Of a DNA stretch of 45,614 nucleotides, positions 209 to 17,408 are shown in pieces. The DNA comes from a virus. Its lineage: Duplodnaviria; Heunggongvirae; Uroviricota; Caudoviricetes. The notes beneath the pieces were generated by a model. The model was not told the origin of the DNA. It did no database searches and saw only the letters and a program-made list of their open reading frames with translations. The translations under genes were made by a program, and so were the position numbers. The DNA lies in the IMG/VR virus record IMGVR_UViG_3300028833_000099, one strand, 5' to 3'. The first letter of the stretch is position 1. Each line of letters opens with the position of its first letter.

Positions 209-289
209 ATCTTTATCTCCTTTTTATTTGTTGTTTGATGGTGCAAAGATACGAAATTATCTCCACACCACCAAATATTTTAAGGGTTT

Positions 290-565
290 TTAACACTCAA
301 AAAGAGTTATTACCTCAACACCAAAATCATATTGGTCAAGAACAGCGTATTCACAATAGGCAATCTGCTCTGCAATTTCTTTTGCGTGTTCACACATAAA
401 CACATTGCCTTGAAACACTTCTTTTAATTTCTCTGCAATGGTGCTGACACAATCCTTATGACGCATATCAATGTGCTCCTCAAAAGCACAAATTGTGCCT
501 TTTGTGTTGTCACCGCCATCTACAAAATAAATGTGATTTATCTTTTTTTCAGTCATAGTCGCCAC
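290..565 (-). CDS. Hypothetical protein
   Basis: ORF track; overlaps stop of upstream gene. Confidence 0.7.
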   Translation of the reverse strand: MATMTEKKINHIYFVDGGDNTKGTICAFEEHIDMRHKDCVSTIAEKLKEVFQGNVFMCEHAKEIAEQIAYCEYAVLDQYDFGVEVITLFEC

Positions 566-923
566 TAATTAAATCTGTTTCAAAAACACACTCTGCAATC
601 AGTTGGTTGCGCTCTGCCCCCTCTGAATCACCTAAGAACTCGTCACCTCCATAAGGGGAAAGATACTCGCCCAATTCGTCAGCGTCATAATCGTTAACGT
701 CAATCTCGTCTTGATACCAATCCTTGATTGTGGTCTTGTCATTCAGACTATCAAGCAACTTCTTTGAGTGTTCCTTACCCTCCATATCCTTAATTTGGAT
801 ATACTCAAAGGTATGGGTATCAATTACACGACAAAACTGACCTTCATCTGGGTCGGTACACGTCCACTCATTCACATCAAAGTGAATAGTTCCGTCTGAA
901 TTGAATTTGTTGTTGAACATCAT
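549..923 (-). CDS. Acidic hypothetical protein (TDPD..Q.CR motif)
   Basis: ORF, AGGAG leader, own promoter. Confidence 0.8.
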   Translation of the reverse strand: MMFNNKFNSDGTIHFDVNEWTCTDPDEGQFCRVIDTHTFEYIQIKDMEGKEHSKKLLDSLNDKTTIKDWYQDEIDVNDYDADELGEYLSPYGGDEFLGDSEGAERNQLIAECVFETDLISGDYD

Positions 924-965
924 AATCTTATCTCCTATTCTTATTATGGTGCAAAGGTACGAAAA

Positions 966-997
966 AATCTCGAAACCACCAAACGATTTCGAGATTT
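966..997 (-). terminator. Hairpin overlapping promoter, likely terminator
   Basis: AATCTCGAAA...TTTCGAGATT inverted repeat. Confidence 0.55.
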
Positions 998-1006
998 TAA
1001 CATATT

Positions 1007-1477
1007 TTAATTATTCATACAAGGTATTTTAATATCAAAATCACTTCTACCAAATCTTGGGGCAATAATTCTCACATACCCTTTTTCTTTTTCAATATAT
1101 TTTTTAAAGAAAGTTCCTCGTTCTTTCAATGCTGCTGACAAAAAACATGAACCTTTATCTTTTGATGAAACATAGAAAGCAGATTGTTCTTTTTTTATAA
1201 GTTTATTGTTTATATCATAAAACCCAATAGTAACTATTACATCGTCATCCCCTAATACTCCATAATCAAAAATGCCACTTTGTGTTACAAGTTTGTAACA
1301 TGGCTCGTTAGAGAAAAAAACGACCATCCCATTCGCATCCTCATAATAATATGATGTGTAACTTTCAGTTCCTTTTAATTCATCGGCATCAAATACCGCT
1401 TTGTTCCAACCATTTTGTGCATTAACACTCAGTACCATTGTCATAAGGCAGACAATAAGCCATAATACTTTCTTCAT
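1007..1477 (-). CDS. Exported hypothetical protein (signal peptide)
   Basis: Start reassigned to MKKVLWLIVCLMTMVLSVNA-Q. Confidence 0.75.
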   Translation of the reverse strand: MKKVLWLIVCLMTMVLSVNAQNGWNKAVFDADELKGTESYTSYYYEDANGMVVFFSNEPCYKLVTQSGIFDYGVLGDDDVIVTIGFYDINNKLIKKEQSAFYVSSKDKGSCFLSAALKERGTFFKKYIEKEKGYVRIIAPRFGRSDFDIKIPCMNN

Positions 1478-1484
1478 AATTCTA

Positions 1485-1736
1485 TTAATATTTAAGTTTA
1501 CTTGCTTTTTCAAACACGTTAATTAACTCTTCTTTGGTGATTGCTTCAAGTGGCTTGTCACTTTTCTCAATATACTTCAAAACCGCTTTCTTACCACGTT
1601 TGTAGCCATTGATAACGTCTCTCGTATATTTCGTGCAAGCACTTGTGTAAAGCCTTTCCTCGTGATGCCTAACATCATTTGTCTCATAGAAATGATTGAA
1701 AATAGGCGCAACTTTCAATTTAACTTCGTAATCCAT
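1485..1736 (-). CDS. Hypothetical protein
   Basis: Start reassigned to MDYEVK, downstream of promoter at 1767. Confidence 0.75.
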   Translation of the reverse strand: MDYEVKLKVAPIFNHFYETNDVRHHEERLYTSACTKYTRDVINGYKRGKKAVLKYIEKSDKPLEAITKEELINVFEKASKLKY

Positions 1737-1798
1737 AATCTTTCTGTTTTTAATTCTTTCGTAATGCAAAGGTACGAAATTATTTTGAACTGGCAAAA

Positions 1799-1825
1799 TA
1801 AAAAGGGGTATATTTCAACCCCTTT
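1799..1825 (-). terminator. Intrinsic terminator
   Basis: AAGGGGT...ACCCCTT with U-tract on minus strand. Confidence 0.65.
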
Positions 1826-1874
1826 AACAAACTTTCACAAATTCAACTCTTTTGGCTACACATCTTCACAGACT

Positions 1875-2534
1875 TTACCAATCTTCTATAAACCTTACAT
1901 TTACAGATGTATCTTTTACCCCTTGGCTTGCAAGGTAATCGTTAATCACTTTTGCCAAACCCTCTTCAAACTGCTTTGGGTCTTTGATGCGCTTGCACTC
2001 CGTAGCGGTGTAAACCTCAAACTTCTCATGGAACTTGTAGGTCTTTCTTACCAACTCAATGAACTCGTCATATTTGCCCTCGGAAAGCAAACCTGCTTCT
2101 GAATGGAAATTAGCGTCAACCAATCTATCTTCAAGCAAGATTTTAATGCGCTTGTCAGCCTTTTGGTGCTCTTTAAGCAACTTCATAAGACTATCATAGC
2201 CATAGGCATAATCGCACTTTTCGTTGGGTTTCTTGACATATTTTTGACGTTCCTCGGCAGTGAAATAGATGGAATCGTCTTTGATGAAATTATCAATACA
2301 CTCCTTGCAGTCTTTGATGTTGCTTGCCCATGCCCCATAGTGCTGCGATGGCTTTTTCTCGCTGCCCTCTTTGCAGAAATCGAAATGAACCTCTTTACTC
2401 TTAGGCCAACTTGAATAACGTGATGGGTCGAACCAACTGCGCTCATACTCAATCTCCGTTACCTTAATAATGCGATAACCATTATAAATCTCTAACGGCT
2501 CTCTGCTTGTCTTGTGTCCACTTCTTACGCTCAT
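1875..2534 (-). CDS. Hypothetical protein
   Basis: 219-aa ORF, ATGA overlap with upstream gene. Confidence 0.8.
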   Translation of the reverse strand: MSVRSGHKTSREPLEIYNGYRIIKVTEIEYERSWFDPSRYSSWPKSKEVHFDFCKEGSEKKPSQHYGAWASNIKDCKECIDNFIKDDSIYFTAEERQKYVKKPNEKCDYAYGYDSLMKLLKEHQKADKRIKILLEDRLVDANFHSEAGLLSEGKYDEFIELVRKTYKFHEKFEVYTATECKRIKDPKQFEEGLAKVINDYLASQGVKDTSVNVRFIEDW

Positions 2535-2770
2535 TTCGCACTCTCCTCTTTCAATGTTTCTAAGTTTCTGTCAATATAGTCCTTAACGGCTTCGAGAGAA
2601 CGGCACACACTATCTTTAACTTTCATGTCACGCTTTGTTGCTCCCCTTGGAATAGTAACATAGAAATCACCATACCAATTATTTCCAATCATGCAGCCAT
2701 ACTGCCAAACATCAATACCCTTGTATCTTCCGCAGTAGTGCTTTTTGTTGTTGTTGAAAAATATTCCCAT
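2531..2770 (-). CDS. Hypothetical protein
   Basis: ORF with leader and promoter. Confidence 0.8.
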   Translation of the reverse strand: MGIFFNNNKKHYCGRYKGIDVWQYGCMIGNNWYGDFYVTIPRGATKRDMKVKDSVCRSLEAVKDYIDRNLETLKEESAK

Positions 2771-2836
2771 ATCTTTATCTCTTTTTGTTTATTGTAATGC
2801 AAAGGTACGAAAAAAAATTGGATTGACCAAATAAAA

Positions 2837-2881
2837 AACCCCAAAATGTCAGGCTTTTAACTTTCCTTAACATTTGGGGTT
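2837..2881 (-). terminator. Intrinsic terminator with TTAA-N6-TTAA in its loop
   Basis: ACCCCAAAATGT...ACATTTGGGGT; homologous to 7396-7439. Confidence 0.7.
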
Positions 2882-2899
2882 CAAAAGGAGAAAAGAATG

Positions 2900-3150
2900 A
2901 GAAAAAACTTAACAAGGTTATGAGGGGTTTGATTTCTTGTGTGGGCAATCCTTATCCTCTCTTTGCGATGGCTACCCAATCCCATCTTTCAACCCAACCT
3001 TGCTATAAGCAAAAGGAGAAACTAATTAGTGGTGGAGTTGCACTTTCCTTACTTGACTTACTGCCAACCTCTTACACAAATGCGCATTGTGCGTAAAACG
3101 ACCTACTCTTACCCTTATACGAGGTTATTTCTCCTTATATTTTTATGCTT
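2900..3150 (-). ncRNA. Candidate structured non-coding RNA or long 3' UTR
   Basis: ORF-free on the coding strand; hairpin GATGGGA/GCCATC; AAGGAGAAA (3127-3135) complementary to TTTCTCCTT (3012-3020). Confidence 0.3.
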
Positions 3151-3546
3151 TTACTTCAACAATCTTTCGATTACTTTTTCGCAGTCCTCAAAATAGCAAT
3201 GATTATTGTAACCACCACGATAATCTTTTTCATTCTTTGCAGTTCTGCAATACATTGGTGCAAGCCAATCTCCATTATTTTTCAAAACAACATGATTTCT
3301 TCCACCACGTCCACAACCATTGCTATAATTGAAATATATATACTTGTCGCTACACTTGATGAAGCCACTCATATCATAGTGACCATACAATGGATTAACA
3401 ACCTCACCATCAAGTGATTTAGCAATTTTCCTCATTGCATTAAAGAAAGCCACTTGAAATGAATGAAATTCCTTTGATACATAACTACCATCGTCCTCTA
3501 AGGTACGACCATTCCACTTTCTGATAAATGCCTTAACGTCTGCCAT
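3151..3546 (-). CDS. Hypothetical protein (GHY..SGF motif)
   Basis: ORF with promoter. Confidence 0.8.
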   Translation of the reverse strand: MADVKAFIRKWNGRTLEDDGSYVSKEFHSFQVAFFNAMRKIAKSLDGEVVNPLYGHYDMSGFIKCSDKYIYFNYSNGCGRGGRNHVVLKNNGDWLAPMYCRTAKNEKDYRGGYNNHCYFEDCEKVIERLLK

Positions 3547-3647
3547 AATTCTAATCTTTAATTGTTTCGTGATGCAAAGGTACGAAAAAAATCTGAATTA
3601 GCCAAGCCTTTTCACACTTTTAACAATTCCTAATTGGCTTTTAATGC

Positions 3648-3887
3648 TTAACGAATACGAATTACCAAAATACCATCATAGACAGAGCAAGAATCCCTTG
3701 TCTCTCCCACCTTCATATCCTTGTAGTTCTCATAGTCGAAGCCATTTGCGTCAAAGTCATCCTCTGTATCAATGGCAATAACGAAAGGCTCACCATCAGT
3801 CCAATTCTCAATTTCCTTTGTGCCAATTGCCACATACTTTGCGTTGATTGTGTTCAACTCTCCGTTCTTCAAAATGTTTTTTTCCAT
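3648..3887 (-). CDS. Hypothetical protein
   Basis: ORF, AGGAG leader, promoter. Confidence 0.8.
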   Translation of the reverse strand: MEKNILKNGELNTINAKYVAIGTKEIENWTDGEPFVIAIDTEDDFDANGFDYENYKDMKVGETRDSCSVYDGILVIRIR

Positions 3888-3949
3888 ATTCTTTATCTCC
3901 TTTTGTTTTACAATGCAAAGGTACGAAAAAAAACTGATATAACCAAATG

Positions 3950-3973
3950 AAAAGGGAGAAAAAATCTCCCTTT
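3950..3973 (-). terminator. Intrinsic terminator
   Basis: AAAGGGAGA-AAAAA-TCTCCCTTT. Confidence 0.7.
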
Positions 3974-3981
3974 AACATTCT

Positions 3982-4701
3982 TTAATCGTCCTCATAGAAA
4001 ATAGCATGGGTTGCATCGAACATAAGATAGTAGTGCCCATTTCCACAATTTCTGTATTCCTCACTATACCAAGCAAGTTTTTCTCCGTCACGATTTGCAA
4101 TCTCAACAGAATTGTCGTAGCCATTCTCCCAACGTCTGTGAAAATTTGTGCCGTTCTTGATACACTCAGCAACTTCTGCGCTCATGCGCTCACGTTCCCA
4201 CTTGCTCCATGCGATAGACTTCCAACATCTTTTTCTCACAAAGGCTTCAAACACTTGATAGCCCCTCACCCAAGAATACTTGCCGTTTTCCTTGTAAACT
4301 TCGTGATAGAACAACTCATACGAATCTGTCATAATGGAGTTCACAAGTTCTCTCTGCTCCGCTTCTGATAGATTAAAGAAATGCTCAATAGACTCTTTGA
4401 TGTCTTTCCAAAGACCACTCTCGTTAAGCATTTTTAAGGCATCTGTGGCACGTTTAACGAAACGCTTGTAGTAATCAATCTCTTCATGCTCGACAAGTTT
4501 CAGTGTCGCCCAATCCTCGTAGTGGTCGCTCCAACTGCTCAGTTCATGACCCCACTTCTTTCTGCCTTTGCTCATGATGGCAATGCGTCCGTCTTCATGT
4601 AGCCACAAGCGAACAATTTTTGAACCGCCAGTGATAAGGTTTACACGATACTGCTTTGCGTGTTTGTTCTTTACGATTTCTCTGATTTCTTGTAATGTCA
4701 T
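3982..4701 (-). CDS. Hypothetical protein (C-terminal WYSEEY..CGNGHYY...DATHA.F.EDD)
   Basis: Start reassigned to MTLQEI after AGGAG leader and promoter. Confidence 0.85.
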   Translation of the reverse strand: MTLQEIREIVKNKHAKQYRVNLITGGSKIVRLWLHEDGRIAIMSKGRKKWGHELSSWSDHYEDWATLKLVEHEEIDYYKRFVKRATDALKMLNESGLWKDIKESIEHFFNLSEAEQRELVNSIMTDSYELFYHEVYKENGKYSWVRGYQVFEAFVRKRCWKSIAWSKWERERMSAEVAECIKNGTNFHRRWENGYDNSVEIANRDGEKLAWYSEEYRNCGNGHYYLMFDATHAIFYEDD

Positions 4702-4786
4702 AATTCTTATCTCCTTTTGTTTTACAATGCAAAGGTACGAAAAAAACCTGATATAGCCAAATTTGTTAACACATTTTAATAAAAAA

Positions 4787-4816
4787 GTGGATGCAATTCG
4801 AAAAAATCGCACCCAC
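4787..4816 (-). terminator. Intrinsic terminator
   Basis: Minus-strand GTGGGTGC...GCATCCAC with G-U pair, then U-tract. Confidence 0.7.
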
Positions 4817-4835
4817 GCAAAACAAAAAGAATAGA

Positions 4836-5252
4836 TTATGTATGTTTCTCAATCAAATCCCTAAACATAAAGGGATATGCGCTATTCTTCTTCTGGTCAG
4901 CAATCATTTTCTCAAAGTTTTTCTTCACATACTTTGAAAGAATGTCGTTTACACGCTCATCATACTTGAACTGGGGAATGACAATCTGTGCGTTGGTTTT
5001 GCCCCTTGCGCCTTGTGTTGCCCTACGTATAAACTTCAACTGCCAAGGAAGATTATATTTCTCTTTGAGAATGCTCTCCACGATGCCAATGATGCTTGCA
5101 CCGCTATCCTTGAAATATGCCTTGCACATCTGATAGTTGGTGAGCAGACTCTCATTCTTCTGATACATTGAATATACCTTATTTGCCTTGTCTTTGGCAT
5201 AATTGGAAATGGCTTGCGCTTCCAATGCTTTACGTACCTTACTATTACTCAT
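4836..5252 (-). CDS. Hypothetical protein
   Basis: ORF with promoter. Confidence 0.8.
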   Translation of the reverse strand: MSNSKVRKALEAQAISNYAKDKANKVYSMYQKNESLLTNYQMCKAYFKDSGASIIGIVESILKEKYNLPWQLKFIRRATQGARGKTNAQIVIPQFKYDERVNDILSKYVKKNFEKMIADQKKNSAYPFMFRDLIEKHT

Positions 5253-5347
5253 ATTCTAATCTTTTATTTGTTTCGTGATGCAAAGGTACGAAAAAAAATT
5301 GGAATAGCCAAATAAAATACAGATTTTTTTTTTTCAAAAAAAATAAA

Positions 5348-5377
5348 TGGGAACAAACCTCCCCAAGTTCGTTCCCA
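5348..5377 (-). terminator. Intrinsic terminator
   Basis: TGGGAAC...GTTCCCA with long U-tract on minus strand. Confidence 0.6.
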
Positions 5378-5493
5378 ATCAATTTGAAAAGGTTTTTCTT
5401 CCTTATTATCAAAAGCGTTCCTCATTCACTTTTGATGGTCTTCCACTTCTTTGCAAAGATATAAAAAATCAATTTGAAAACCAAATATAAATA

Positions 5494-5958
5494 TTATTGG
5501 TTTGTGATTTTCTCCAACTCTTCGTCTGAAATTTTTATCTTATCAAACATTGGCTTATATTTCAAGCACTCTTCGTATGCCTTTTTCAACTTTGGGAGAT
5601 TTACATTAGTTTCCCACCAAAGATAGAAAACAATATCATCATAGAGTTTCTGCAAGTCTTTCGTGAACATATCTTCAAGTTCAACTTTATGGATAATCTG
5701 CCCACTTCCAACTCTATAGCAGATTGGATAGCGCATAAAATACCAACCTCCCTCGCTTTTCTCTACTGAATAATCATAACGACCCCAGCAATCAATGAAG
5801 AGATACTTTTTAGTTATTGCATGGTAGTTACGTCCATCATCACCTATTGTAGGTGTGCTTCCACGCTGCTTGATGTAGGCTTCAGAAAAGGTAAATTTCT
5901 TGTTGCCTATAATTCTGCGAATATTGTCTAAAAGTTCTTGTTTTTTTACTATATTCAT
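5494..5958 (-). CDS. Hypothetical protein
   Basis: ORF, AGGAG leader, promoter. Confidence 0.8.
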   Translation of the reverse strand: MNIVKKQELLDNIRRIIGNKKFTFSEAYIKQRGSTPTIGDDGRNYHAITKKYLFIDCWGRYDYSVEKSEGGWYFMRYPICYRVGSGQIIHKVELEDMFTKDLQKLYDDIVFYLWWETNVNLPKLKKAYEECLKYKPMFDKIKISDEELEKITNQ

Positions 5959-6001
5959 ATCTCAATCTCCTTTTTATTTCGTGTTGCAAAGGTACGAAAA
6001 A

Positions 6002-6029
6002 AACGTGAACTGACCAAACAATTCACGTT
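6002..6029 (-). terminator. Terminator overlapping the -33 element
   Basis: AACGTGAA...TTCACGTT then U-tract. Confidence 0.6.
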
Positions 6030-6037
6030 AATTTTTG

Positions 6038-6451
6038 TTAATCCCATTCAGCAATATACTTATCTGTCTCGTTGTCGTAGATGTTCACTTGAGGACACTT
6101 TGCACTTCTATAGAACTCTGCTGCCTTTTTAAGAGCAATGACTTCATTGTCTGTATCAATATGCTTGGCGGTTTCTTCAATCACATCACCATTCTCATTC
6201 AACTCATAGCAATGCACAGAATAACGTGCTTCAAGTGATTTGATATACTTCGTTACGTTTCTGTTAACGTCATGGATAACACCATCGCCCATTGTGGCAC
6301 AATAACGCTCTATATGGTTGTTTACTTCGTCCTCATGAACACCAGCATCAATGTCCATTGACTCCCATACAAGGGCATGAATGAAATTCTTGAAAGCCTT
6401 TTTAACTTTTTCGTAGTCTTCGTAATTCTCTTTAATTCTAATCTTATCCAT
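6038..6451 (-). CDS. Hypothetical protein
   Basis: ORF, AGGAG leader. Confidence 0.8.
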   Translation of the reverse strand: MDKIRIKENYEDYEKVKKAFKNFIHALVWESMDIDAGVHEDEVNNHIERYCATMGDGVIHDVNRNVTKYIKSLEARYSVHCYELNENGDVIEETAKHIDTDNEVIALKKAAEFYRSAKCPQVNIYDNETDKYIAEWD

Positions 6452-6466
6452 ATCTTAATCTCCTTT

Positions 6467-6715
6467 TTAGTTATACCCCAATTCATCACAAGCGGCTTTA
6501 ACTGCATTGATACGTGCGTTTGTGCAAGCGTTGTTATAACCGCAGTTATCGTATGTTGCAGTCTTTGTGGTGTGGTTTACAACGGCAATCTTATTGCCAT
6601 AGAAATAGACCTTTGTGATGTTGTCCTCTGTGCGAACAACCACGTTACTGCCACCCCAATTCTTTTTGCTAATGACTGCATAGTAAATGCTTTCTTGATA
6701 ACCTCTAAATGCCAT
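6467..6715 (-). CDS. Conserved phage hypothetical protein (YGN.IA...T.ARINA type)
   Basis: ORF, AGGAG leader. Confidence 0.75.
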   Translation of the reverse strand: MAFRGYQESIYYAVISKKNWGGSNVVVRTEDNITKVYFYGNKIAVVNHTTKTATYDNCGYNNACTNARINAVKAACDELGYN

Positions 6716-6764
6716 AATCTAATCTCCTATACTTTTTTGATTTATTACTAATTTAACAATGGGG

Positions 6765-7028
6765 TTATGCCACTCTCACTATCAGTCCGTAGTTGTCGCA
6801 CCACCATTCTTCTTTGTAGTCCAACATCTGAATACACTCAATGTCCGCATCCGTAAAGTTGCCATATCGTTTCAGCCACTTTGGTATCTCCTTTTCAGTA
6901 CCTCGCACCAATGTCACCACCGAATCGTTCTCTTTCGTTGAGAAACCAATCAGCGCATAAGCACGTTTCTCCATGTTATCACCACCATAAATGTGAATGC
7001 GTGTGCAATGCCGTAAATATTTCGCCAT
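6765..7028 (-). CDS. Hypothetical protein
   Basis: ORF, AGGAG leader. Confidence 0.75.
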   Translation of the reverse strand: MAKYLRHCTRIHIYGGDNMEKRAYALIGFSTKENDSVVTLVRGTEKEIPKWLKRYGNFTDADIECIQMLDYKEEWWCDNYGLIVRVA

Positions 7029-7050
7029 AATCTAATCTCCTATATTTGTC

Positions 7051-7326
7051 TTAATTTTCACAAAGTTCTGCGGTATATGGGGAATATATTGTACCACTTT
7101 CAACTGCTTCGCTTTCTACTGCGAAAAGACCAGTTCCCTTTTCGTAATATATTTCCAACTCAAACTCCATATCACGGACAACTGCTTCTGCTTCTTCTTG
7201 CGTAGAGCAAACCTTTTCTTCAAGCAGTTCTTTCACTTTTGCAGCAAATGCTTTTGGGAATTTCTCTTTGGTGAGTTTAATCGCACCTATACTTTCGTAT
7301 TCATCTGAATTGTTTAATTTAACCAT
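7051..7326 (-). CDS. Hypothetical protein (GLFAVESEAVE..IYSPYT motif)
   Basis: ORF, AGGAG leader, promoter. Confidence 0.8.
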   Translation of the reverse strand: MVKLNNSDEYESIGAIKLTKEKFPKAFAAKVKELLEEKVCSTQEEAEAVVRDMEFELEIYYEKGTGLFAVESEAVESGTIYSPYTAELCEN

Positions 7327-7395
7327 AATTTTTATCTCCTTTTATTTTTTCTTGATGCAAAGGTACGAAATTTTTTTGAATTGACAAAATAAAAA

Positions 7396-7439
7396 GACCA
7401 CAAATGCTGGGATTTTAACTTTCCTTAACATTTGCGGTC
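7396..7439 (-). terminator. Intrinsic terminator with TTAA-N6-TTAA in its loop
   Basis: Minus-strand GACCGCAAATG...CATTTGTGGTC (G-U pair), U-tract. Confidence 0.7.
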
Positions 7440-7462
7440 AACAAAAGGAGATTAAAGAATGA

Positions 7463-7732
7463 TTATTCAATATTTAACAAGGCATAACTTTTTCCATCTA
7501 CTGACTTTTTCCATGTCCAGACAGATGTTACTTCCTCATCATCAAACGATAATATAACTTTATCGCTCATGTCGTTTATTGGCTCTACCTTTATGGTATT
7601 TGGCTTTTTAGGGAACAATGCCACTTTTGGGTCATTAATAACCCTCATAACAATCCCCTCAATTGTTTTTGGTGCTTTATTGACAAACACACAATGGGCA
7701 AAGCCAGACCTAAGTAATGCTTTTGTATTCAT
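7463..7732 (-). CDS. Hypothetical protein
   Basis: ORF track. Confidence 0.75.
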   Translation of the reverse strand: MNTKALLRSGFAHCVFVNKAPKTIEGIVMRVINDPKVALFPKKPNTIKVEPINDMSDKVILSFDDEEVTSVWTWKKSVDGKSYALLNIE

Positions 7733-7734
7733 GC

Positions 7735-7875
7735 TTATTTACGTTTCTTTTTCTGCCAATATTTCAGTTTTTTTCTTTTTGGGTGAAATTCAGCACTATA
7801 ATACCCCATACTCAATTCTTTAAGCATTGGAATATAAATGCTTGGGTCATACCCATGTAATATGTAGTAATACAT
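7735..7875 (-). CDS. Small basic protein, 46 aa (MYYYILHG...HPKRKKLKYWQKKKRK)
   Basis: Manual translation; TAATG coupling. Confidence 0.6.
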   Translation of the reverse strand: MYYYILHGYDPSIYIPMLKELSMGYYSAEFHPKRKKLKYWQKKKRK

Positions 7876-7985
7876 TATTCTTCTAAATTATTGATTATCT
7901 TTTCAAGTCTTTTTCTCGTTTTGGGGTCAGAGAGAGTGTCGGCAATCATTATGCCGACACAGAATAATATGAATAAACCAAACAT
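7875..7985 (-). CDS. Small membrane peptide, 36 aa (MFGLFILFCVG...)
   Basis: Manual translation; TGATG/TAATG coupling on both sides; contains internal hairpin at 7934-7962. Confidence 0.45.
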   Translation of the reverse strand: MFGLFILFCVGIMIADTLSDPKTRKRLEKIINNLEE

Positions 7986-8803
7986 CACTTCTCAATTTTT
8001 TTGATAGTTCCTTTGTCACCATCAATAGCGTAGCCTATTTCCTTGGCAATCACTGGGAAAAACACATCATCGAAATATGTGCTTGCATCGCCATTGCAAA
8101 ATACTTCCACACCAAAATTGTAGGCAGACGGATAAAGCATAATGCGTTCAAAAATCTCGCTCCAATATGCAGTAATGGTGTGTTTGATGTCAGACTTCTC
8201 ACAGATAGAGCCATCATTGAGGTTAAGCCACTGAATGAAACGAGTACCATTTTTCATCATTTCGCTAACCCTATGCATTTGCTCATATTCCATGCGTCCA
8301 GCGAGAAAAGCCAATTCTTTGTGTGATGTGATGTCATAGATGTAACTATCTTCGCCATAGTGTGCGCTTTCCTCAATAAAAGCGTTCCATAACTTGACAA
8401 GTTTCTCTTCTGATAACTTCTCAATGGTTTTGAGATAGGTCTTGCGCTCAATAGGGCTCATTTCCTTGATTGTGCGCTGCTCACAGAACAATGCTACGTT
8501 ATCGCCATGGGTGTTGAAGAAAGTCACAATTTCCTCGTCAGTCGGCTTGGTGCTGAATGTAATTTCAGAAACCATTTTCTTGAACTTCTCCAGCGGAGAC
8601 TGCAAGCAACGGAACATTCCCTCATGCTCGGTGTAGTCAGCCATAAAATCCTTAAAGTGCAAACCATACTCGTTGATATATTCACTTATCTGCTTGTCAC
8701 TTGGAACGTCAATGTTAAGTTCCTTACAAGCCTTAATGACGTTCATACGAAAGCCAATCACCCTATGGGCAAAGCCAATCAAATCATTTTCTTTTTCTGC
8801 CAT
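7985..8803 (-). CDS. Hypothetical protein
   Basis: Start reassigned to MAEKEN after AGGAG leader and promoter. Confidence 0.85.
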   Translation of the reverse strand: MAEKENDLIGFAHRVIGFRMNVIKACKELNIDVPSDKQISEYINEYGLHFKDFMADYTEHEGMFRCLQSPLEKFKKMVSEITFSTKPTDEEIVTFFNTHGDNVALFCEQRTIKEMSPIERKTYLKTIEKLSEEKLVKLWNAFIEESAHYGEDSYIYDITSHKELAFLAGRMEYEQMHRVSEMMKNGTRFIQWLNLNDGSICEKSDIKHTITAYWSEIFERIMLYPSAYNFGVEVFCNGDASTYFDDVFFPVIAKEIGYAIDGDKGTIKKIEK

Positions 8804-8872
8804 ATCTTTATTCTCCTTATTTGTTGTTTGATGTTGCAAAGGTACGAAATTATTTTGAAATAACCAAATATT

Positions 8873-9013
8873 TTAGGAATTATTTTCCAATTTTTTTGAT
8901 AGTTCCCTTGTCTCCATCTTCTTTATTTTTCTTCTTAATTTGTTATTGTCGTGTATAAGCATGAAAACAATACACATCTGGACAACAGATAAAAATGCTA
9001 TTAACTCTTCCAT
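8873..9013 (-). CDS. Small membrane-anchored protein, 46 aa (MEELIAFLSVV...)
   Basis: Manual translation. Confidence 0.55.
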   Translation of the reverse strand: MEELIAFLSVVQMCIVFMLIHDNNKLRRKIKKMETRELSKKLENNS

Positions 9014-9025
9014 AACTCTAATATT

Positions 9026-9337
9026 TTAATTATAGAATACTGCTACCTCACCAATAGGCTGCTCGAAATCGCCTAAGTAGTCTGTGAGAGTGTAGAGGTC
9101 AGCGTTTTCTGCGAGAGCCTTACGAAGAAACTCTGCATATTCCTCATTGCCCTCTGAATGAGCGTCAGCAATCCAAATGTTTGCCATTTCGCCATCTACA
9201 TCTTCAAGGCTATAATTACCATTCCAATCTTCATCGTTCTTGACCATTTCCACAGCTATGTTGTGCTGCTCTTCTGAAAGGTCAAAGGTTTCAATCTTAT
9301 AAAAATCAAAACCACTCAACAATGTAATTCTTTTCAT
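9026..9337 (-). CDS. Acidic hypothetical protein
   Basis: ORF with promoter. Confidence 0.8.
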   Translation of the reverse strand: MKRITLLSGFDFYKIETFDLSEEQHNIAVEMVKNDEDWNGNYSLEDVDGEMANIWIADAHSEGNEEYAEFLRKALAENADLYTLTDYLGDFEQPIGEVAVFYN

Positions 9338-9447
9338 TTTTACTTACTTTTAATTGTTAATACTGCTTTGTTTTATTATGATGCAAAGATACGAAATTAT
9401 TTTGAAATAACCAAATTATTTCGGATAAAATTTTGTTAAAAAACAAC

Positions 9448-9475
9448 GATGGGCTTACCTCACGGCAAACCCATC
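9448..9475 (-). terminator. Probable terminator after tRNA-like element
   Basis: GATGGG...CCCATC. Confidence 0.5.
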
Positions 9476-9540
9476 ATCCAACTAAAAACCTAACAATTCA
9501 AATTATGGAAAACAAAGAGCGTTTCACAACGCAACGAGCA

Positions 9541-9617
9541 TAGCACCCCTCGTAGGACTCGAACCTACGACCCTCGGTTGTTGGCAACCGATGCTCTACC
9601 AACTGAGCTATCAGGGT
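9541..9617 (-). tRNA. Atypical or degenerate tRNA; anticodon unassignable
   Basis: D arm GCTC-AGTTGGTA-GAGC and T arm GTAGG-TTCGAGT-CCTAC are canonical. Anticodon arm TCGGT-TGCCAACA-ACCGA has an 8-nt loop, or a 7-bp stem with CCAA loop. Acceptor ACCCTGA/GAGGGGT has 2 mismatches; ends GCTA rather than NCCA. Confidence 0.75.
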
Positions 9618-9619
9618 AA

Positions 9620-10168
9620 AATGGGGATTGCCAACGGCAAGTCAAAATCAACATCAACTTGTCACTGCCCATGAATCCCCTTAAAAAACCTCACCTCTAA
9701 ACCATCCTCTCTACTTTGCTGATAGAAATGTGCGCACGTTATCACATTTGGAGGGGGTGGATAAACTTGGCAAGGTAATGACCGAAGATGCCCCAAAATG
9801 AACGCCCAAAATAGCGGCTCTAAATAGCGGCTTGGGGGCGAATAATGTGCCTATCGGAAGTGGCGATTATATGCAATACAGCAAACGCTCACTTGGCACT
9901 TAACGGCAGGGCTGATAGATAGTGGTCTGTCTAAGTTTTTTTTATTAGTCTTAATTAAATCAATGTTATAATATATTCCCTTAATAGGGTCGGTCTCTGC
10001 TACGCATATCTCACGTATTTATGTGGGTATCGAACCCCACGTTACCTTAAATTAAACTCGATTATATAACATAAAAAATAATTTAAGTGTGCAAGCCTTT
10101 TAAGGCGGAGGTCTTTCCATTATTCTCTCTCTTTTTAGTTGAGGGTATTGCAACCCTCGTTATTAATT
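9620..10168 (-). ncRNA. Candidate long structured ncRNA or tRNA-like precursor leader
   Basis: Own promoter at 10175, no ORF over 60 aa, multiple GC-rich helices. Confidence 0.35.
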
Positions 10169-10253
10169 CTGTTGCAAAGGTACGAAATCTTTTTGAATTG
10201 ACCAAATCTTTCGGCAAATTTTAACTTCGTTTAACCTTTGGAAAGTGCGCAAA

Positions 10254-10427
10254 TTAGCGCATCTTATAGACATTGTAGAGTTGCGTGTTCTCCACTACCA
10301 CCTCTCCATTCTTGTCCTTCAGTGGCTGACCATTCTCGTCAGTCTTTACGACTTCTTTCTTGCGACTTGGGATTGCCACCACTCGGTTGTTTCGGATTGC
10401 TTTTTCAAGCCGTTTCTGTCCACTCAT
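10254..10427 (-). CDS. Small hypothetical protein, 57 aa (MSGQKRLEK...)
   Basis: Manual translation; own promoter at 10480. Confidence 0.75.
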   Translation of the reverse strand: MSGQKRLEKAIRNNRVVAIPSRKKEVVKTDENGQPLKDKNGEVVVENTQLYNVYKMR

Positions 10428-10546
10428 AATTCTTTGTCTTTTTACTTAATTACCAATTGTTTATTTATCTTTCGTGATGCAAAGGTACGAAAAAAAATTG
10501 GATTGACCAAATTATTCCGTGATTTTTTTCAGATTTTAACGTTTAT

Positions 10547-10780
10547 TTACCAATTACCTTGCTGGTTTTCAATAAATTCAACCGTTTCAATCGTTTCCTT
10601 GATGTCCGCTTCCAACTTATCATCGTCAATGTCAGAGAAATCATCGTCTCTGTCAGAACGATAGTCATTAAGCGTTTTGCCATAGAGTTCGCATACAAAC
10701 TCTCCGTTCTCTGTAACGTCAAGTCCGCTTGTTGTCTCTCTGACTTGATAGCCTAACTCTGTCTCGTATGTACTACCCAT
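10547..10780 (-). CDS. Acidic hypothetical protein
   Basis: ORF track. Confidence 0.75.
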   Translation of the reverse strand: MGSTYETELGYQVRETTSGLDVTENGEFVCELYGKTLNDYRSDRDDDFSDIDDDKLEADIKETIETVEFIENQQGNW

Positions 10781-10792
10781 AATTACTTTTTT

Positions 10793-10912
10793 TTACTCTG
10801 CGGTCTCTTCCTTGTCGTTGTTCTTCTGTCCGAAGTAAGTAATCACCTTGGGAAGTGCAACAAGTGCTCCAACACAAATGACAAGGGCGATAATTTGTCC
10901 AACTGAAATCAT
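10793..10912 (-). CDS. Small single-pass membrane protein, 39 aa (MISVGQIIALV...)
   Basis: Manual translation. Confidence 0.65.
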   Translation of the reverse strand: MISVGQIIALVICVGALVALPKVITYFGQKNNDKEETAE

Positions 10913-10940
10913 AGTCTTAATTTTTTGAAGTTTCTTTTTT

Positions 10941-10974
10941 TAAGGTGGTGGGTTTTAGTTTCCCACACACCTTA
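10941..10974 (-). terminator. Intrinsic terminator or attenuator
   Basis: TAAGGTG.TGGG...CCCA.CACCTTA. Confidence 0.55.
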
Positions 10975-11001
10975 TTATATTATAGATACGTACAGCCTTA
11001 T

Positions 11002-11571
11002 TTATGCGTTAGCAACTGCTGGCTCTATAGCCATTTCTGCTGCTTCCAACTCTGCATCCTTGGACTGCTTGCCGATACCCATGCCCTCAACGAGAGCCTT
11101 TGCGTTCTTCAAGTCAATCTTGGGGTTGCTCTCCATGCGCTCCAATGCAGCCTTGAAATCCTTGGTCTTGGTGCTGAACTTGTCATAGAAACGGCAAAGT
11201 GCGTGTGCAGCATTGGGGTTGCGGAACAACTTGTCGTTCTTGTGATACTTGGCAGCAATCTTCAACCATGAGAAAATCTTCTCGGCTTTCTTCTCGTCAA
11301 TCTTGGTGTAGCCATCCTCAAACACCTCCTTGCGGTGTGCGTTCTTTCCTACTGCGAAGTAAACGAGATAGGTAATAGGGTAGTTTCCGTTAGCCACCGA
11401 CAACTCAACGAGTTTCTTGCAGATGTCAATGTGCTGCTGACGAAGTGCTTTGTGCTGCGGTAGGTTGAACCATACTGGCATTTTCACACCCTTACCACCA
11501 TTATTCTCTGCCACAAGGCGAACACGTGTGTCAAGTGAAAACTTTTCTTTCTTTGTCTCTGTTTTTGCCAT
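11002..11571 (-). CDS. Hypothetical protein, probably highly expressed
   Basis: 189-aa ORF with C/G-ending codon bias; own promoter. Confidence 0.85.
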   Translation of the reverse strand: MAKTETKKEKFSLDTRVRLVAENNGGKGVKMPVWFNLPQHKALRQQHIDICKKLVELSVANGNYPITYLVYFAVGKNAHRKEVFEDGYTKIDEKKAEKIFSWLKIAAKYHKNDKLFRNPNAAHALCRFYDKFSTKTKDFKAALERMESNPKIDLKNAKALVEGMGIGKQSKDAELEAAEMAIEPAVANA

Positions 11572-11692
11572 AGTTTTAATATCCTATTTTTTAATGTTAA
11601 ACTTATTGTTATTTCTTTTGTGATGCAAAGGTACGAAAAAATTTTGAATCTACCAAATAATTTCTTATAAAAATCAGGCTCTTTAACCCTTT

Positions 11693-12148
11693 TTAACAAA
11701 TGAGTTCTGATATTGTTGTGAAATCACGCATATAATAAATGTTATCTGCATTGTCTCCATCTTCAAAATATGAACTTTGCAGCCATTCTGAAAGGGTTAT
11801 TCCAATAAGGTGCTTGTTCTCAAAACGCACCCATACTTCATAGGTTTTTTCCTCAATGGTGAAATATGCAACGTAGCAGCCATTACCCTCTCTATCGAAA
11901 TAACGACTATTGATTTTGATGTCAAACACCCTCAGTGTTTCTAAAGGTGTGTCACCCTCTCCCAATGTTATTTTGTTTTTTATACCAATGGTGGCATAAA
12001 CCCCACAAGGAGCAATATCTTCTCTCTTATCGGTATCATGGTAGAGAATGTCCTCAACCACTTTTTTTACCATAGTATTACCATAGAAAGGGTTTTTGCT
12101 CCCATTTCTTGCTTCGGTCATTTCAACTCTTAACTTTGCTTCTACCAT
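11693..12148 (-). CDS. Hypothetical protein
   Basis: Start reassigned to MVEAKL after AGGAG leader. Confidence 0.8.
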   Translation of the reverse strand: MVEAKLRVEMTEARNGSKNPFYGNTMVKKVVEDILYHDTDKREDIAPCGVYATIGIKNKITLGEGDTPLETLRVFDIKINSRYFDREGNGCYVAYFTIEEKTYEVWVRFENKHLIGITLSEWLQSSYFEDGDNADNIYYMRDFTTISELIC

Positions 12149-12246
12149 ATCTTTATCTCCTATTGTTTTATTGTGGTGCAAATGTACGAAATTATTTTGA
12201 ATTAACCAAATATTTTTTGGAAAATCTCTGGGGCTTTAACCTTTTT

Positions 12247-12729
12247 TTAGAATTCGTGGAAATTTTCTTTCGTTTTGCTCATTTTCCACACACCATCTTC
12301 AAAAAGGTAATTATATTGCCCATATATAGTTTCATATACCTTATTAAATGAGCCTTGAATTGGTTTGATGTTGCGCCATTTGTCTGTGTTTCTGTTAGCA
12401 TAATGAGCAACATGACCGCTTGCAATTCCGCTACAGAAGCCGCCAACTAACAAGTTAAGGGCAGTCTCATAGTCGTTAAAATGCTCTTTAAGGGTCTCTC
12501 CTACACTATCAGGATAACCATCCCAATGGCAATAAATACCAATGTACTCACCTTTGAGCGTTACCATCCTACAAAGGTCTTTACCTCGTTTGTCGAACCA
12601 TACTTTCCCATTTTCATCTGTCTCTATCCACTCTTTAAGCGGAATTGGCAGTTTGGTAGGGTCGAATTTTATTTTGCGTCCTACGTCCTCTTTGCGGACT
12701 TTAAGGATAATTCTTGATGGTGTACTCAT
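12247..12729 (-). CDS. Conserved phage protein, MST.S...YCHWDGYP family
   Basis: Motif IYCHWDGYP; own promoter. Confidence 0.8.
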   Translation of the reverse strand: MSTPSRIILKVRKEDVGRKIKFDPTKLPIPLKEWIETDENGKVWFDKRGKDLCRMVTLKGEYIGIYCHWDGYPDSVGETLKEHFNDYETALNLLVGGFCSGIASGHVAHYANRNTDKWRNIKPIQGSFNKVYETIYGQYNYLFEDGVWKMSKTKENFHEF

Positions 12730-12837
12730 AATTTACTATTTTATTTGTTGTTTGTTGATGCAAAGGTACGAAATTATTTTGAATTGACAAAATATTACTT
12801 GAAAAAAATCTGGTTTGTTAACAATTATTAACAAAAA

Positions 12838-12864
12838 ATGGACTGGGATTGTTTCCCAGTCCAT
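12838..12864 (-). terminator. Intrinsic terminator
   Basis: Perfect 11-bp stem ATGGACTGGGA/TCCCAGTCCAT with U-tract. Confidence 0.8.
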
Positions 12865-12905
12865 CAGAACAACTAACATAAAACAATAAAAAACTATGAA
12901 AAAAC

Positions 12906-13076
12906 TTAGTCTCTCCTAAGTATCTTTGATTCGTTTTCTTTTCCGAGAGTAAACTGACGAATATCAGCGTCCTCTGCTTGGTCTCTCGCCTTATCAAGTG
13001 CTTCTCCCTCGTCGTTTGCTTCAACTTCAATAACAATTGAAGCATTATAGTTTAGTTCTATTACGTATTTCTGCAT
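12906..13076 (-). CDS. Small acidic protein, 56 aa, possibly DpnD/PcfM-like
   Basis: Manual translation MQKYVIEL...IEVEANDEGEALDKA; family call weak. Confidence 0.6.
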   Translation of the reverse strand: MQKYVIELNYNASIVIEVEANDEGEALDKARDQAEDADIRQFTLGKENESKILRRD

Positions 13077-13093
13077 ATTCTTTTTAATTTATA

Positions 13094-13414
13094 TTATTCT
13101 TTAGGTTTAACTTCCACACCATCTTTATATAGTGTGTTAAATGCCATAAGCACATGAATCACTGTGATTTCCTCTTTGTCACTAATCTCACCAACATACT
13201 CTATTACTGCATCAGATAACTCTTTGCTATCCTTAACCGCTTTTAACTGCGGATAAATCATATCAAAGCGGTGTCCTCTGTAACTCTCGCAAACCGCATG
13301 ACCATCGTAGATGTCAAAAGGAATGGCTTTCTTAAAACCCTCTATATTAAGATTTTCAGAGCAGACCTTTTTCCCATAGAATTTTTCCCAAATTTTACTT
13401 TCGTTGTTATTCAT
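13094..13414 (-). CDS. Hypothetical protein
   Basis: ORF with promoter. Confidence 0.75.
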   Translation of the reverse strand: MNNNESKIWEKFYGKKVCSENLNIEGFKKAIPFDIYDGHAVCESYRGHRFDMIYPQLKAVKDSKELSDAVIEYVGEISDKEEITVIHVLMAFNTLYKDGVEVKPKE

Positions 13415-13462
13415 TTTTCTAATTATTTATTGTTTAACTTTAGCAAAGATATAAAAAAAAAG

Positions 13463-13489
13463 TGAGACTGACAAATTATGTCAGCCTCA
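13463..13489 (-). terminator. Intrinsic terminator overlapping the -33 element
   Basis: Minus-strand TGAGGCTGACA...TGTCAGTCTCA with U-tract. Confidence 0.7.
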
Positions 13490-13531
13490 ACTTCTGTTAA
13501 AAAAGATTAAAAAAGGAAGGATTTCGGACTT

Positions 13532-13924
13532 TCATTTTATTTTTCTAATAGGTATTATTCCCTCATTATCAAACTTGATTATATAATCCCAATGAGCACC
13601 AATAGGGTCTTTGGAAAGCCTAATATAATGTATCTCTTGCCTATCCGTTCCGTCATTATCCAAAACAAATTCATAAGCCTTATATATGGTCTCAGAACTT
13701 GTTTCAAATTCCATTTCTAACCTATATTGCTCCATACCGCAGCCACTTTCGTAAGTGTCCACATACAGACTATCTTTTACAAAGGTGAAAAGCAATGTGG
13801 AATCATTTGTTATAAACTTCGTTGGTGTGAGTGTCTGCCCATCAGTGCAAGCAGACAACCCCACTGCTATTAGCATAAAAGAAAGAATTAGTAATTTCTT
13901 CATTTTGCGTTTAATTCTACCCAT
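13532..13924 (-). CDS. Lipoprotein
   Basis: MKKLLILSFMLIAVGLSA-C lipobox; start at 13924 or 13903. Confidence 0.75.
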   Translation of the reverse strand: MGRIKRKMKKLLILSFMLIAVGLSACTDGQTLTPTKFITNDSTLLFTFVKDSLYVDTYESGCGMEQYRLEMEFETSSETIYKAYEFVLDNDGTDRQEIHYIRLSKDPIGAHWDYIIKFDNEGIIPIRKIK

Positions 13925-13997
13925 CTTCTTAATCTCTTTTTGTTTTACAATGCAAAGGTACGAAATTATTTTGAATTAACCAAATTAATTTGGGGAA

Positions 13998-14037
13998 AAA
14001 TGTGGTGGGGAAATGTTAAAATCCCCAATCCACATTT
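13998..14037 (-). terminator. Intrinsic terminator
   Basis: AAATGTGG.TGGGG...CCCCA.CCACATTT. Confidence 0.65.
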
Positions 14038-14837
14038 GTTTCGCTATCAAGGTCAATCACAAAGGGAGTATTAGGTTTGACAAAATGACCGCTTTTGTAG
14101 TCGTTTGCAGTCTTATGATAGTGCAACCCCATAATTGACTTCTTAGGGTCAAGGTAACGCATATCGTAAGAATTAGCGTCAACCACATTCCAACCCCTAA
14201 ACTGCTTTGGCAGCGTTTCATTCTCGCTATAGAACACAACGGCAACCTTGCCACCATGGCGCAAAAACTTCTCGCACTCTTCCCAGTTATATCCGTCATA
14301 ACTGAAAGTGAGGTCATAGTTAGGGTATTGTTCCAACAACTTCACTCTGTTATAAACCTTTGTGTAGTCATAGAATTGAACATCTGGGAACATTTCCAAT
14401 ATGTTCTTACCACTTTTAAGGTCTCTGAAAGCGAGAGGGGAGAGGTCGCTTGTACCATTAAGGCGAACACTAAACCCATATCCAAGACGCTTTGCCCTTG
14501 CTCGTTTGCTCTCAATCTCATGCACAAGTATCTCCATGAAACGCTCTCTGTCCTCATAGAACAACTTAGTTTTCTTGATACGTGAACGATTTATCTTAGA
14601 GCCTTCAACACCTCTTGCAAGTTCATCACACTTGTTCTGTCCGCTTCCGTTCAAACAGAACTCATGGCAGTGCTGACCTTTGGGACAAGTGTTGTGTCCG
14701 CTCATATTCCAAGGAGCAAGGTACAAGCAATATGTCATTGTTCCATTCTCATAAGAGAGACGCATTTTCATGCTTTGTGCCACATTACCAAGATATGTAA
14801 CACCGATTTCTTGTAAGGCTTTTCCATAACCAATCAT
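14016..14837 (-). CDS. GP88-like protein (radical-SAM-like phage family)
   Basis: CPKGQHCHEFC, RLNGTSD, QFYDYTK, Y.LTFS motifs. Confidence 0.75.
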   Translation of the reverse strand: MIGYGKALQEIGVTYLGNVAQSMKMRLSYENGTMTYCLYLAPWNMSGHNTCPKGQHCHEFCLNGSGQNKCDELARGVEGSKINRSRIKKTKLFYEDRERFMEILVHEIESKRARAKRLGYGFSVRLNGTSDLSPLAFRDLKSGKNILEMFPDVQFYDYTKVYNRVKLLEQYPNYDLTFSYDGYNWEECEKFLRHGGKVAVVFYSENETLPKQFRGWNVVDANSYDMRYLDPKKSIMGLHYHKTANDYKSGHFVKPNTPFVIDLDSETNVDWGF

Positions 14838-14977
14838 TTCTTTATTCTCCTTTTTTATTGTTAGACAATTTGTTTATCTCTTTCGTGATGCAAAGGTACG
14901 AAATTATTTTGAATTAGCCAAACAAAAATCAAATTATTTTCAATTTATAATAATTTTTTTCTGAATTATTTACAAAA

Positions 14978-15058
14978 AAAAGAGGTGTGCCTATGGAAAG
15001 ACAACACCAGTTCAACGAAGGGAATCGAACCCTTACATACACTTTTGTACCTCTTTTT
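14978..15058 (-). ncRNA. Terminator-like structure enclosing a perfect tRNA T-arm
   Basis: AGAGGT/ACCTCT closing stem with U-tract; internal AAGGG-TTCGATT-CCCTT. Confidence 0.35.
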
Positions 15059-15081
15059 ATATATGCACAACTTCTTGATGG

Positions 15082-15306
15082 CTATTTTAGGCGTTTCACC
15101 ATCTTATGGTACTTTGAACAGCCATCACCCATTAAAGTGCCATTAAAAAATGCAATTAGTTTCTTTCTATTTGCTTTCTTTCTGCCAAGATTTCTTAACT
15201 TTGCGTTGTACTCGCTTCTTTCCTCATCAGTCGCATATTTACTTAACGGCTGAACCTTAATACCCTTTCTTACTTGATTTTTCATATTCTTGTCTGTATT
15301 ATTCAT
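15082..15306 (-). CDS. Small basic hypothetical protein
   Basis: ORF track. Confidence 0.65.
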   Translation of the reverse strand: MNNTDKNMKNQVRKGIKVQPLSKYATDEERSEYNAKLRNLGRKKANRKKLIAFFNGTLMGDGCSKYHKMVKRLK

Positions 15307-15309
15307 AAC

Positions 15310-15678: not shown

Positions 15679-15732
15679 AATTTTTTTCTTTGATGCAAAT
15701 ATACGAAATTATTTTGAGATAACAAAATAAAA

Positions 15733-15755
15733 CCCCAACTTTTTTTGAGTTGGGG
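15733..15755 (-). terminator. Intrinsic terminator
   Basis: CCCCAACT-N7-AGTTGGGG. Confidence 0.75.
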
Positions 15756-17407: not shown

Positions 17408-17408
17408 A

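Follow-up and report, generated by a model that had tools for sequence, protein, structure and literature searches.

The window analysed here is the whole 45,614-nucleotide stretch of the IMG/VR virus record IMGVR_UViG_3300028833_000099 (Caudoviricetes), and the element in question is a cassette whose RNA carries an inverted copy of a translation leader (hereafter the anti-leader) directly before a terminator. The window shares 99% identity with the 140.5-187.7 kb section of G001, a complete phage genome of 295,155 bp that has terminal repeats, and represents the early arm of a Bacteroidia-type jumbo phage of ~295 kb. Its first 18 kb are a tightly packed array of small minus-strand genes, and a nearly invariant minus-strand promoter (TTTGG, ~20 nt, TA(C/T)(C/A)TTTGCA) stands before each. 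We counted 23 copies of TTTG-N19-21-TA(C/T)(C/A)TTTGCA in 1-18 kb, a pattern that we take to be the Bacteroidia -33/-7 consensus, and the promoters point to a Bacteroidia host. Repeated terminator/promoter/leader cassettes flank ORFan genes; a hairpin with a U-run is found at ~10 cassettes of the early arm and is missing from several. A leader of the AACAAAAGGAGAUAAAGAAUAUG type precedes about half of the early genes, and it is in the early arm (window 1-18000; G001 140-160 kb) that strong GGAG leaders, with a spacer of 8-9 nt, are concentrated. The ten proteins flanking the sites described below had no Pfam or PHROG match, and blastn against a phage collection returned no match.

The sequence-only reading had proposed that five 3' ends of this array, at 2882, 4817, 7441, 9476 and 12865 (sites 1 to 5), carry the reverse complement of a translation-initiation region (TIR). 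The sequences that it quoted are present at all five sites, each adjoining a minus-strand terminator, so that in minus-strand RNA every site lies 5' of a hairpin and then a U-run. A true inverted GGAG leader was found at 2882-2899 and 7441-7461, whereas 4817, 9476 and 12865 lack GGAG. Nor are these five independent cases: the first two are paralogous copies of one cassette, and the other three are weaker look-alikes or unrelated. The observation is real but heterogeneous, because sites 2, 4 and 5 lack GGAG, sites 1 and 3 are paralogous, and site 4 is the trailer of a tRNA-like gene.

The motif AAAGGAGA is over-represented in the window (16 matches vs 2.9 expected), and its only plus-strand copies within the minus-strand early arm start at 2884, 3012 and 7444. 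A weight matrix derived from 34 real leaders was used to rank the plus-strand TIR-like ATGs of 1-18 kb, and the top three were those at 4838, 12896 and 7459, which belong to sites 2, 5 and 3. Leader likeness exceeded that of composition-preserving shuffles at site 2 (p = 0.0015), site 5 (p = 0.014) and site 3 (p = 0.025); the values were p = 0.095 at site 4 and p = 0.13 at site 1, whose spacer is 3 nt short, yet which has the full AAAAGGAGA. At site 2 the 'ATG' shares bases with the stop codon 4836-4838. The 3' untranslated regions (UTRs) at 4817 and 12865 are U-rich, lack GGAG and are of weaker significance, yet they are more leader-like than composition explains.

The paralogous sites 1 and 3 share a promoter, a hairpin with two GTTAA boxes in its loop and the inverted leader, and even a few bases beyond it (Table 1). 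Their anti-leader is a segment of ~20 nt, UCAUUCUUU(AA)UCUCCUUUUG with the conserved core UCUCCUUU, which lies directly before a strong intrinsic terminator in minus-strand RNA. It is unpaired in single-sequence folds of the cassettes and also in the consensus fold, where at site 1 it lies between a structured domain, called X, and the terminator. At site 3 it follows the stop codon and is thus the 3' end of an mRNA. The RNA of site 1 carries the anti-Shine-Dalgarno (anti-SD) 12-mer twice, a seed duplication whose second copy is kept in the related loci L127, L155 and L159, and a sense Shine-Dalgarno (SD)-like sequence further upstream, UAAGGAGAAAU (3127-3137), is able to pair with either anti-SD. 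The U-run of site 1 shares bases with the -33 region of the promoter that follows.

Scans of rumen viral and metagenome contigs, all from a handful of metagenome projects, yielded ~40 related loci with 37 distinct members of this cassette family. All 37 keep a GGAGA(A/T) core with a downstream (A)AAGAA, and GGAGAUUAA(A)GAA is likewise retained in three further members that were found via the left hairpin arm alone. The related loci have 272 distinct promoter flanks, in which an antisense AAGGAG occurs 38 times, and 36 of these occurrences belong to the site-1/site-3 family. The anti-SD as a general terminator feature was rejected, the GGAG anti-leader being confined to this one cassette family.

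Several tests bear on the strand and on coding capacity. Wobble pairs in the hairpins form only in minus-strand RNA and would be A-C mismatches on the plus strand, and relatives add more of them; the U-G pair of the site-1 hairpin at columns 169/188, for instance, is kept in 17/18 sequences. These strand-specific pairs support a minus-strand terminator. The plus-strand mini-ORFs (open reading frames of 8, 8, 12, 7 and 33 codons) are frameshifted by 1-nt indels in relatives, where lengths run from 4 to 33 codons and ATGs are lost. The ATG is kept in 34/37 family members; it is missing from L156 and two L161 cassettes, and also from the more distant L188. As the sequence-only reading had it, the plus-strand peptides are unrelated to each other, and comparison across relatives showed that they are not conserved either. 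It was also right that a plus-strand promoter is absent: the best scores of the phage promoter matrix near the sites were -7 to -24, vs at least +25.8 for real promoters. Reading the hairpin as an inverted promoter that has degenerated likewise finds no backing in this score and is at most a weak idea. A 33-codon minus-strand ORF over site 1 was rejected too, since five type-A variants of the cassette have a 1-nt deletion after which the frame runs through the terminator, and its start ATG is absent in type A'. Given the frameshifting indels, the lost ATGs, the lack of a plus-strand promoter and the strand-specific wobble pairs, we read the anti-leader segment as non-coding minus-strand RNA.

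The X domain of site 1, ~90 nt long and upstream of the anti-leader, is conserved far better than the neighbouring genes: in G002 it is 98% identical, while a nearby protein there is 71% identical. We compared its diverged versions, namely types A and A', variants L131, L142 and L161, and two copies in 5' UTRs. They support one fold with four helices. P1 is the outer helix and P2 a hairpin; the loop of P2 pairs with a strand further downstream to give a pseudoknot, and P3 completes the set. For the nested helices, 95.6% of cells were paired, vs at most 54% when partners were slid, and 9 pairs had changed on both sides; with the pseudoknot included this number was 10, which 0/500 shuffles reached. 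Covariation is seen in P2 (GAUGG/CCAUC, GGUAG/CUACC, AGUAG/CUACU) as well as in the pseudoknot (GGGUA/UGCCC, AGUCA/UGACU, GGGCA/UGCCU), and the X domain of the window matches the covariance model with 130 bits. Support for the fold is good, not overwhelming, because the independent lineages are few. In Rfam 15, which includes the families PsrR1 and c4, no family reached its gathering threshold, PsrR1 coming closest with 27.4 bits vs 42, and the X core had no exact match in one genome each of 185,579 prokaryote species. We conclude that the X domain is a previously uncatalogued pseudoknotted RNA fold.

X occurs in one or two copies per genome and in several settings. In the window and most relatives it lies within a 3' UTR. 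In L163, L129 and L138 a canonical promoter stands 153-178 nt upstream of the anti-leader with no ORF in between, and in L163 and L138 this promoter was seen to follow the terminator of the previous gene; because of this promoter of their own, promoter, X, anti-leader and terminator there make up a stand-alone RNA gene of ~200 nt. Two loci have X in a 5' UTR ahead of a sense initiation region; the homologous gene of the window, 7985-8803, is without X, unlike these relatives. L133 and L156 have no X and carry two anti-SD 12-mers in tandem. What follows the conserved fold thus varies between a sense TIR and an anti-SD with one of two unrelated terminators, and the neighbouring genes are ORFans. 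A GC-richer conserved stretch directly upstream of X was noted at L006:1660-1950 (G002), with homologues in L131, L145, L147 and L188. A riboswitch expression platform seems unlikely: by eye, no conserved anti-terminator pairing was seen, and the terminator of L188 is different.

The case of L188, a 412-kb phage of an independent lineage retrieved through the X core only, deserves separate mention. Here X is followed by AUCUCCUUU and then by an unrelated terminator hairpin, and ten leaders of this phage read AAGGAGAT... This provides the best argument that the anti-SD may be kept for a reason and not merely carried along with one hairpin.

To which leaders the anti-leader could bind was estimated with a simple duplex model. 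The sequence-only reading had stated that the 7441 copy closely complements the leaders at 3887, 4701 and 6451, and the energies bear this out (-23.9, -21.5 and -18.8 kcal/mol). Overall, the site-3 tail is predicted to form duplexes of -19 to -24 kcal/mol with the leaders at 14837, 3887, 8803, 12148, 5958, 4701, 7326 and 7028, the background 1% quantile being -19.8; the best partners of the site-1 tail are the leaders at 3887, 4701 and 16871. We favour a narrower, antisense form of the earlier idea because the anti-leader is conserved, non-coding, accompanied by RNA structure and complementary to these leaders. On this reading, to which we tentatively assign a probability of about 0.45, the 3' ends at the GGAG sites would act as phage antisense regulators of the phage's own GGAG-type early leaders. 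We infer that the RNA accumulates and that its exposed tail pairs in vivo with the SD, spacer and AUG of 8-10 GGAG-type leaders in the same early arm. Pairing would lower the translation or stability of the targeted mRNAs, and the outcome would be feedback on early expression or an early-to-middle timer.

A role in host shut-off, also raised by the sequence-only reading, is unlikely, because Bacteroidia, the host group to which the promoters point, have mRNAs without SD sequences and ribosomes that hide their anti-SD and ignore SD sequences (PMC7797042, PMC9976891, PMC13000453). Phage-encoded bS21 was not found in the complete genome G001. A bolder version of the antisense reading, which we think has only a slim chance of being correct, is that in an SD-blind host the GGAG box would not mainly be a ribosome signal and would instead serve as a handle for the phage anti-leader RNA. 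X would then protect or mark a stable 3' fragment, like nuclease-resistant viral RNAs or a protein-binding scaffold, and the UCUCCUUUU tail would switch off the whole early ORFan arm as the fragment accumulates.

A number of observations weigh against antisense regulation. Much of the family sample was retrieved with a pattern requiring AAAAGGAGA, and many members are near-identical, so that their conservation is of limited weight. G001 holds exactly two copies of the family in 295 kb, and among 220 other terminator-like sites in that genome, CTCCTT or TCTCCT stands upstream of one, vs 2.4 expected. Regulation would miss about half of the early leaders, which lack GGAG. Any U-rich tract would show part of the complementarity to A-rich leaders: the type-A linker, when shuffled, gave a mean of -11.1 vs -12.2 observed. 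The X copy of the window is 3'-UTR borne and has no promoter of its own, so a small RNA made of X and the tail would need processing. Finally, common descent with cassette shuffling could explain the spread of the anti-leader without any function.

That last point leads to the strongest alternative, in which the inverted leader is a functionless relic, for example of an inverted duplication or of an old promoter-leader module arranged back to back, and hitch-hikes in a recombining cassette. Near-confinement of the AAGGAG-bearing flanks to one family, similarity to leaders that extends across the spacer and ATG as descent predicts, and ORFan flanking genes all agree with it. So do the signs of frequent shuffling: L152 is a chimera that joins the stem of type A to the tail of type B, types A and A' have loop variants in common, and cassette-bounded indels distinguish the window, G001 and G003. 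Yet the tail is intact in all 37 members while the adjacent linker gains indels and X diverges by about a third with compensatory changes. The anti-SD of L188 stands beside a different hairpin, the motif is duplicated in the site-1 RNA, and the supposed leader has not decayed on a plus strand that has no promoter. We consider a relic unlikely, though it is the alternative to be taken most seriously.

Action in cis has a smaller chance. The anti-leader would pair either with the downstream leader on read-through RNA, as insulation, or with the 5' leader of its own unit, closing the mRNA. The inverted repeat does bound the cassette, with ~105-110 nt from anti-leader to leader, and when the 34 leaders are ranked by pairing, the leader of the own unit comes 3rd for the 3' UTR of site 3 and 4th for that of site 5. 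Over eight terminator-bearing units these ranks lean low (25, 11, 3, 4, 29, 2, 1 and 7), a weak trend for which a rough, one-sided, post hoc estimate gives p ~0.02. Across 38 cassettes, however, the cassette's own downstream leader was no better a partner than other leaders (-13.4 vs -13.2 kcal/mol; permutation p = 0.33), 13/38 downstream leaders lack GGAG, and site 1 ranks only 25/34 with the leader of its own unit. Cis action is doubtful on these numbers.

Plus-strand expression, in which the sites would be real initiation regions for antisense transcripts or mini-ORFs, is very improbable. The sequence reads as an excellent SD-spacer-ATG, its ATG is mostly kept, and the right arm of the hairpin, AACATTTGC(A), is one mismatch from TACATTTGCA, a -7 variant used elsewhere in the window; against this stand the poor promoter scores, the short frameshifted ORFs, the ATGs lost from four cassettes and the wobble pairs that suit minus-strand RNA only. 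Equally improbable is a DNA-level element, with the leader box and its inverted copy as operators for repressor looping or as arms of an invertible promoter: such promoters with flanking inverted repeats are common in Bacteroidia, and the two boxes flank the promoter ~104-108 bp (roughly ten helical turns) apart, but no flipped configuration occurs among the related loci, the left arm is missing in 13/38 cassettes, the repeats are imperfect and no recombinase or repressor was identified nearby.

Table 1. Features of the cassettes, of the weaker sites and of related loci (window coordinates unless a locus is named).
Coordinates	Strand	Feature	Remark
3151..3546	-	Upstream ORFan gene, 131 aa	Its transcript carries site 1
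3022..3150	-	Rest of the 380-nt 3' UTR	Sense SD-like UAAGGAGAAAU at 3127-3137
3010..3021	-	Second 12-mer copy (plus strand CAAAAGGAGAAA)	Second anti-SD directly 5' of X
2913..3003	-	Structured RNA X domain: P1, P2 hairpin, pseudoknot (P2 loop + downstream strand), P3	Covariation
2900..2912	-	Variable U-rich linker	1-nt indels breaking the ORFs of both strands
2882..2899	-	Anti-leader 1, RNA CAUUCUUUUCUCCUUUUG; reverse complement of SD, spacer and AUG	Invariant across types A and A'
2830..2881	-	Site-1 intrinsic terminator	Hairpin 2839-2879, U-run 2830-2838; from folds
2771..2829	-	Promoter (-33 TTTGG, -7 TACCTTTGCA) and leader of the downstream gene 2531-2770	Belongs to the site-1 cassette
7463..7732	-	ORFan gene, 89 aa	Its mRNA carries anti-leader 2 at the end; relatives 96% and 71% identical
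7441..7461	-	Anti-leader 2, RNA CAUUCUUUAAUCUCCUUUUGU	Begins 1 nt past the stop codon of the 89-aa gene
7396..7439	-	Site-3 terminator hairpin	U-run 7390-7395; one G-U pair only in minus-strand RNA, a second in relatives
4787..4840	-	Site 2: terminator hairpin 4787-4816 and 19-nt U-rich 3' UTR	Leader-like, without GGAG
12837..12908	-	Site 5: terminator hairpin 12837-12865 and 40-nt U-rich 3' UTR	Without GGAG
9445..9542	-	Site 4: conserved trailer and terminator behind a tRNA-like gene	Not leader-like
2854-2876, 3955-3985, 10215-10245, 11660-11700, 12800-12835		Direct-repeat examples	Window 1-18000
L007 ~1600-1690	-	GC-rich leader insert	Example coordinates
L164:1572-1681	-	X in 5' UTR, then sense initiation region and gene	
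L126:9243-9355	-	X in 5' UTR, then sense initiation region and gene	
L188:9230-9330	+	X in 412-kb phage	Retrieved via the X core only

Other features of the early arm were observed in passing. In most cassettes the -33 box is closely preceded, on the transcribed strand, by a direct repeat, (G/A)TTAA-N6-GTTAA, 11 bp apart, which makes up the hairpin loop at sites 1 and 3; the repeat resembles a protein-binding or UP-like element that serves the early promoters. Between the window and G001, the short segments 6564-6723, 14983-15299 and 18895-19063 are present in one and absent from the other, which would fit the gain or loss of single cassette-bounded units, and G003 carries an extra cassette with an ORFan. 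In L001, L007, L127, L128, L157 and L159 a long leader has a GC-rich insert (TGCAAUGUGAUAGGGAAAAAGCAUAUAAGCAGCCGAUUCACCCCCAC...) between promoter and SD; the insert is probably structured and may be another RNA module.

Two 3' ends merit a description of their own. Upstream of site 4 lies the tRNA-like gene 9543-9617 (minus strand), which matches the Rfam tRNA model with 43 bits and to which ARAGORN gives a four-base anticodon, 'ccaa'; its anticodon arm allows two drawings, one with a 5-bp stem and an 8-nt loop, the other with a longer stem and a 6-nt loop. In relatives, different tRNA-like genes precede this same trailer and terminator. The gene 13532-13924 has a 3' UTR (window 13490-13536) with a pyrimidine tract, UCCUUCCUUUUUU, upstream of its terminator 13463-13489, and this UTR ranks 2/34 for pairing with the leader of its own unit.

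Several known systems resemble parts of the cassette. The RNA of the c4 system in phages P1 and P7 reportedly acts by an antisense mechanism described by Citron and Schuster in 1990. Like the RNA proposed here, c4 (RF01695) is a protein-free phage RNA whose exposed bases complement the ribosome-binding region of a phage mRNA from the same region; the Rfam scans gave no sequence or structure match to it, and the predicted targets here are many early leaders that share a consensus, not one operon. The enterobacterial CpxQ and SroC and the RsaE of S. aureus are small RNAs that are derived from 3' UTRs or carry an anti-SD seed. Together with the cyanobacterial PsrR1 (RF02701), they have a structured 5' part, an unpaired pyrimidine-rich seed complementary to initiation regions and a Rho-independent terminator, as does the cassette RNA, which by its score is not a member of PsrR1. 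To our knowledge, Bacteroidia lack Hfq. The T4 protein RegB is an endoribonuclease that targets GGAG in the initiation regions of early mRNAs and thereby shuts them off; it is thus a phage device acting on the GGAG of early mRNAs, as we propose, with a protein nuclease as effector there and an RNA here.

The arrangement of the early arm itself resembles the promoter-early stem-loop (PeSL) cassettes of T4-type phages, composites that are shuffled by homologous recombination (PMC2839356, PMC4122927). Both consist of a repeated host-type early promoter and a terminator stem-loop between ORFans in a hyperplastic arm, and both show cassette-bounded insertions, deletions and chimeras between close relatives. 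The promoters here are of the Bacteroidia type (TTTG / TAnnTTTG), not sigma-70 with a GGGG...CCCC stem, and because the promoter class differs we regard the early-arm cassettes as an analogue of PeSLs, not a homologue. An inverted-leader tail, found here in one sub-family, and a structured RNA module such as that of site 1 are not described for PeSLs. In terms of known systems, the element would be a phage antisense RNA combined with a PeSL-like cassette, and it brings an uncatalogued RNA fold.

Small regulatory RNAs of Bacteroidia-infecting phages and of jumbo phages are almost unknown. If the antisense reading is true, a whole block of early genes would be timed or damped by RNA through a shared leader, and it would be explained why a phage whose host does not use SD pairing has strong GGAG leaders. 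A new compact pseudoknotted fold would also have been moved as a module among 5' UTRs, 3' UTRs and stand-alone units. Should the tail be only a relic, the locus would still be a clear counterpart, in Bacteroidia phages, of PeSL-mediated gene shuffling.

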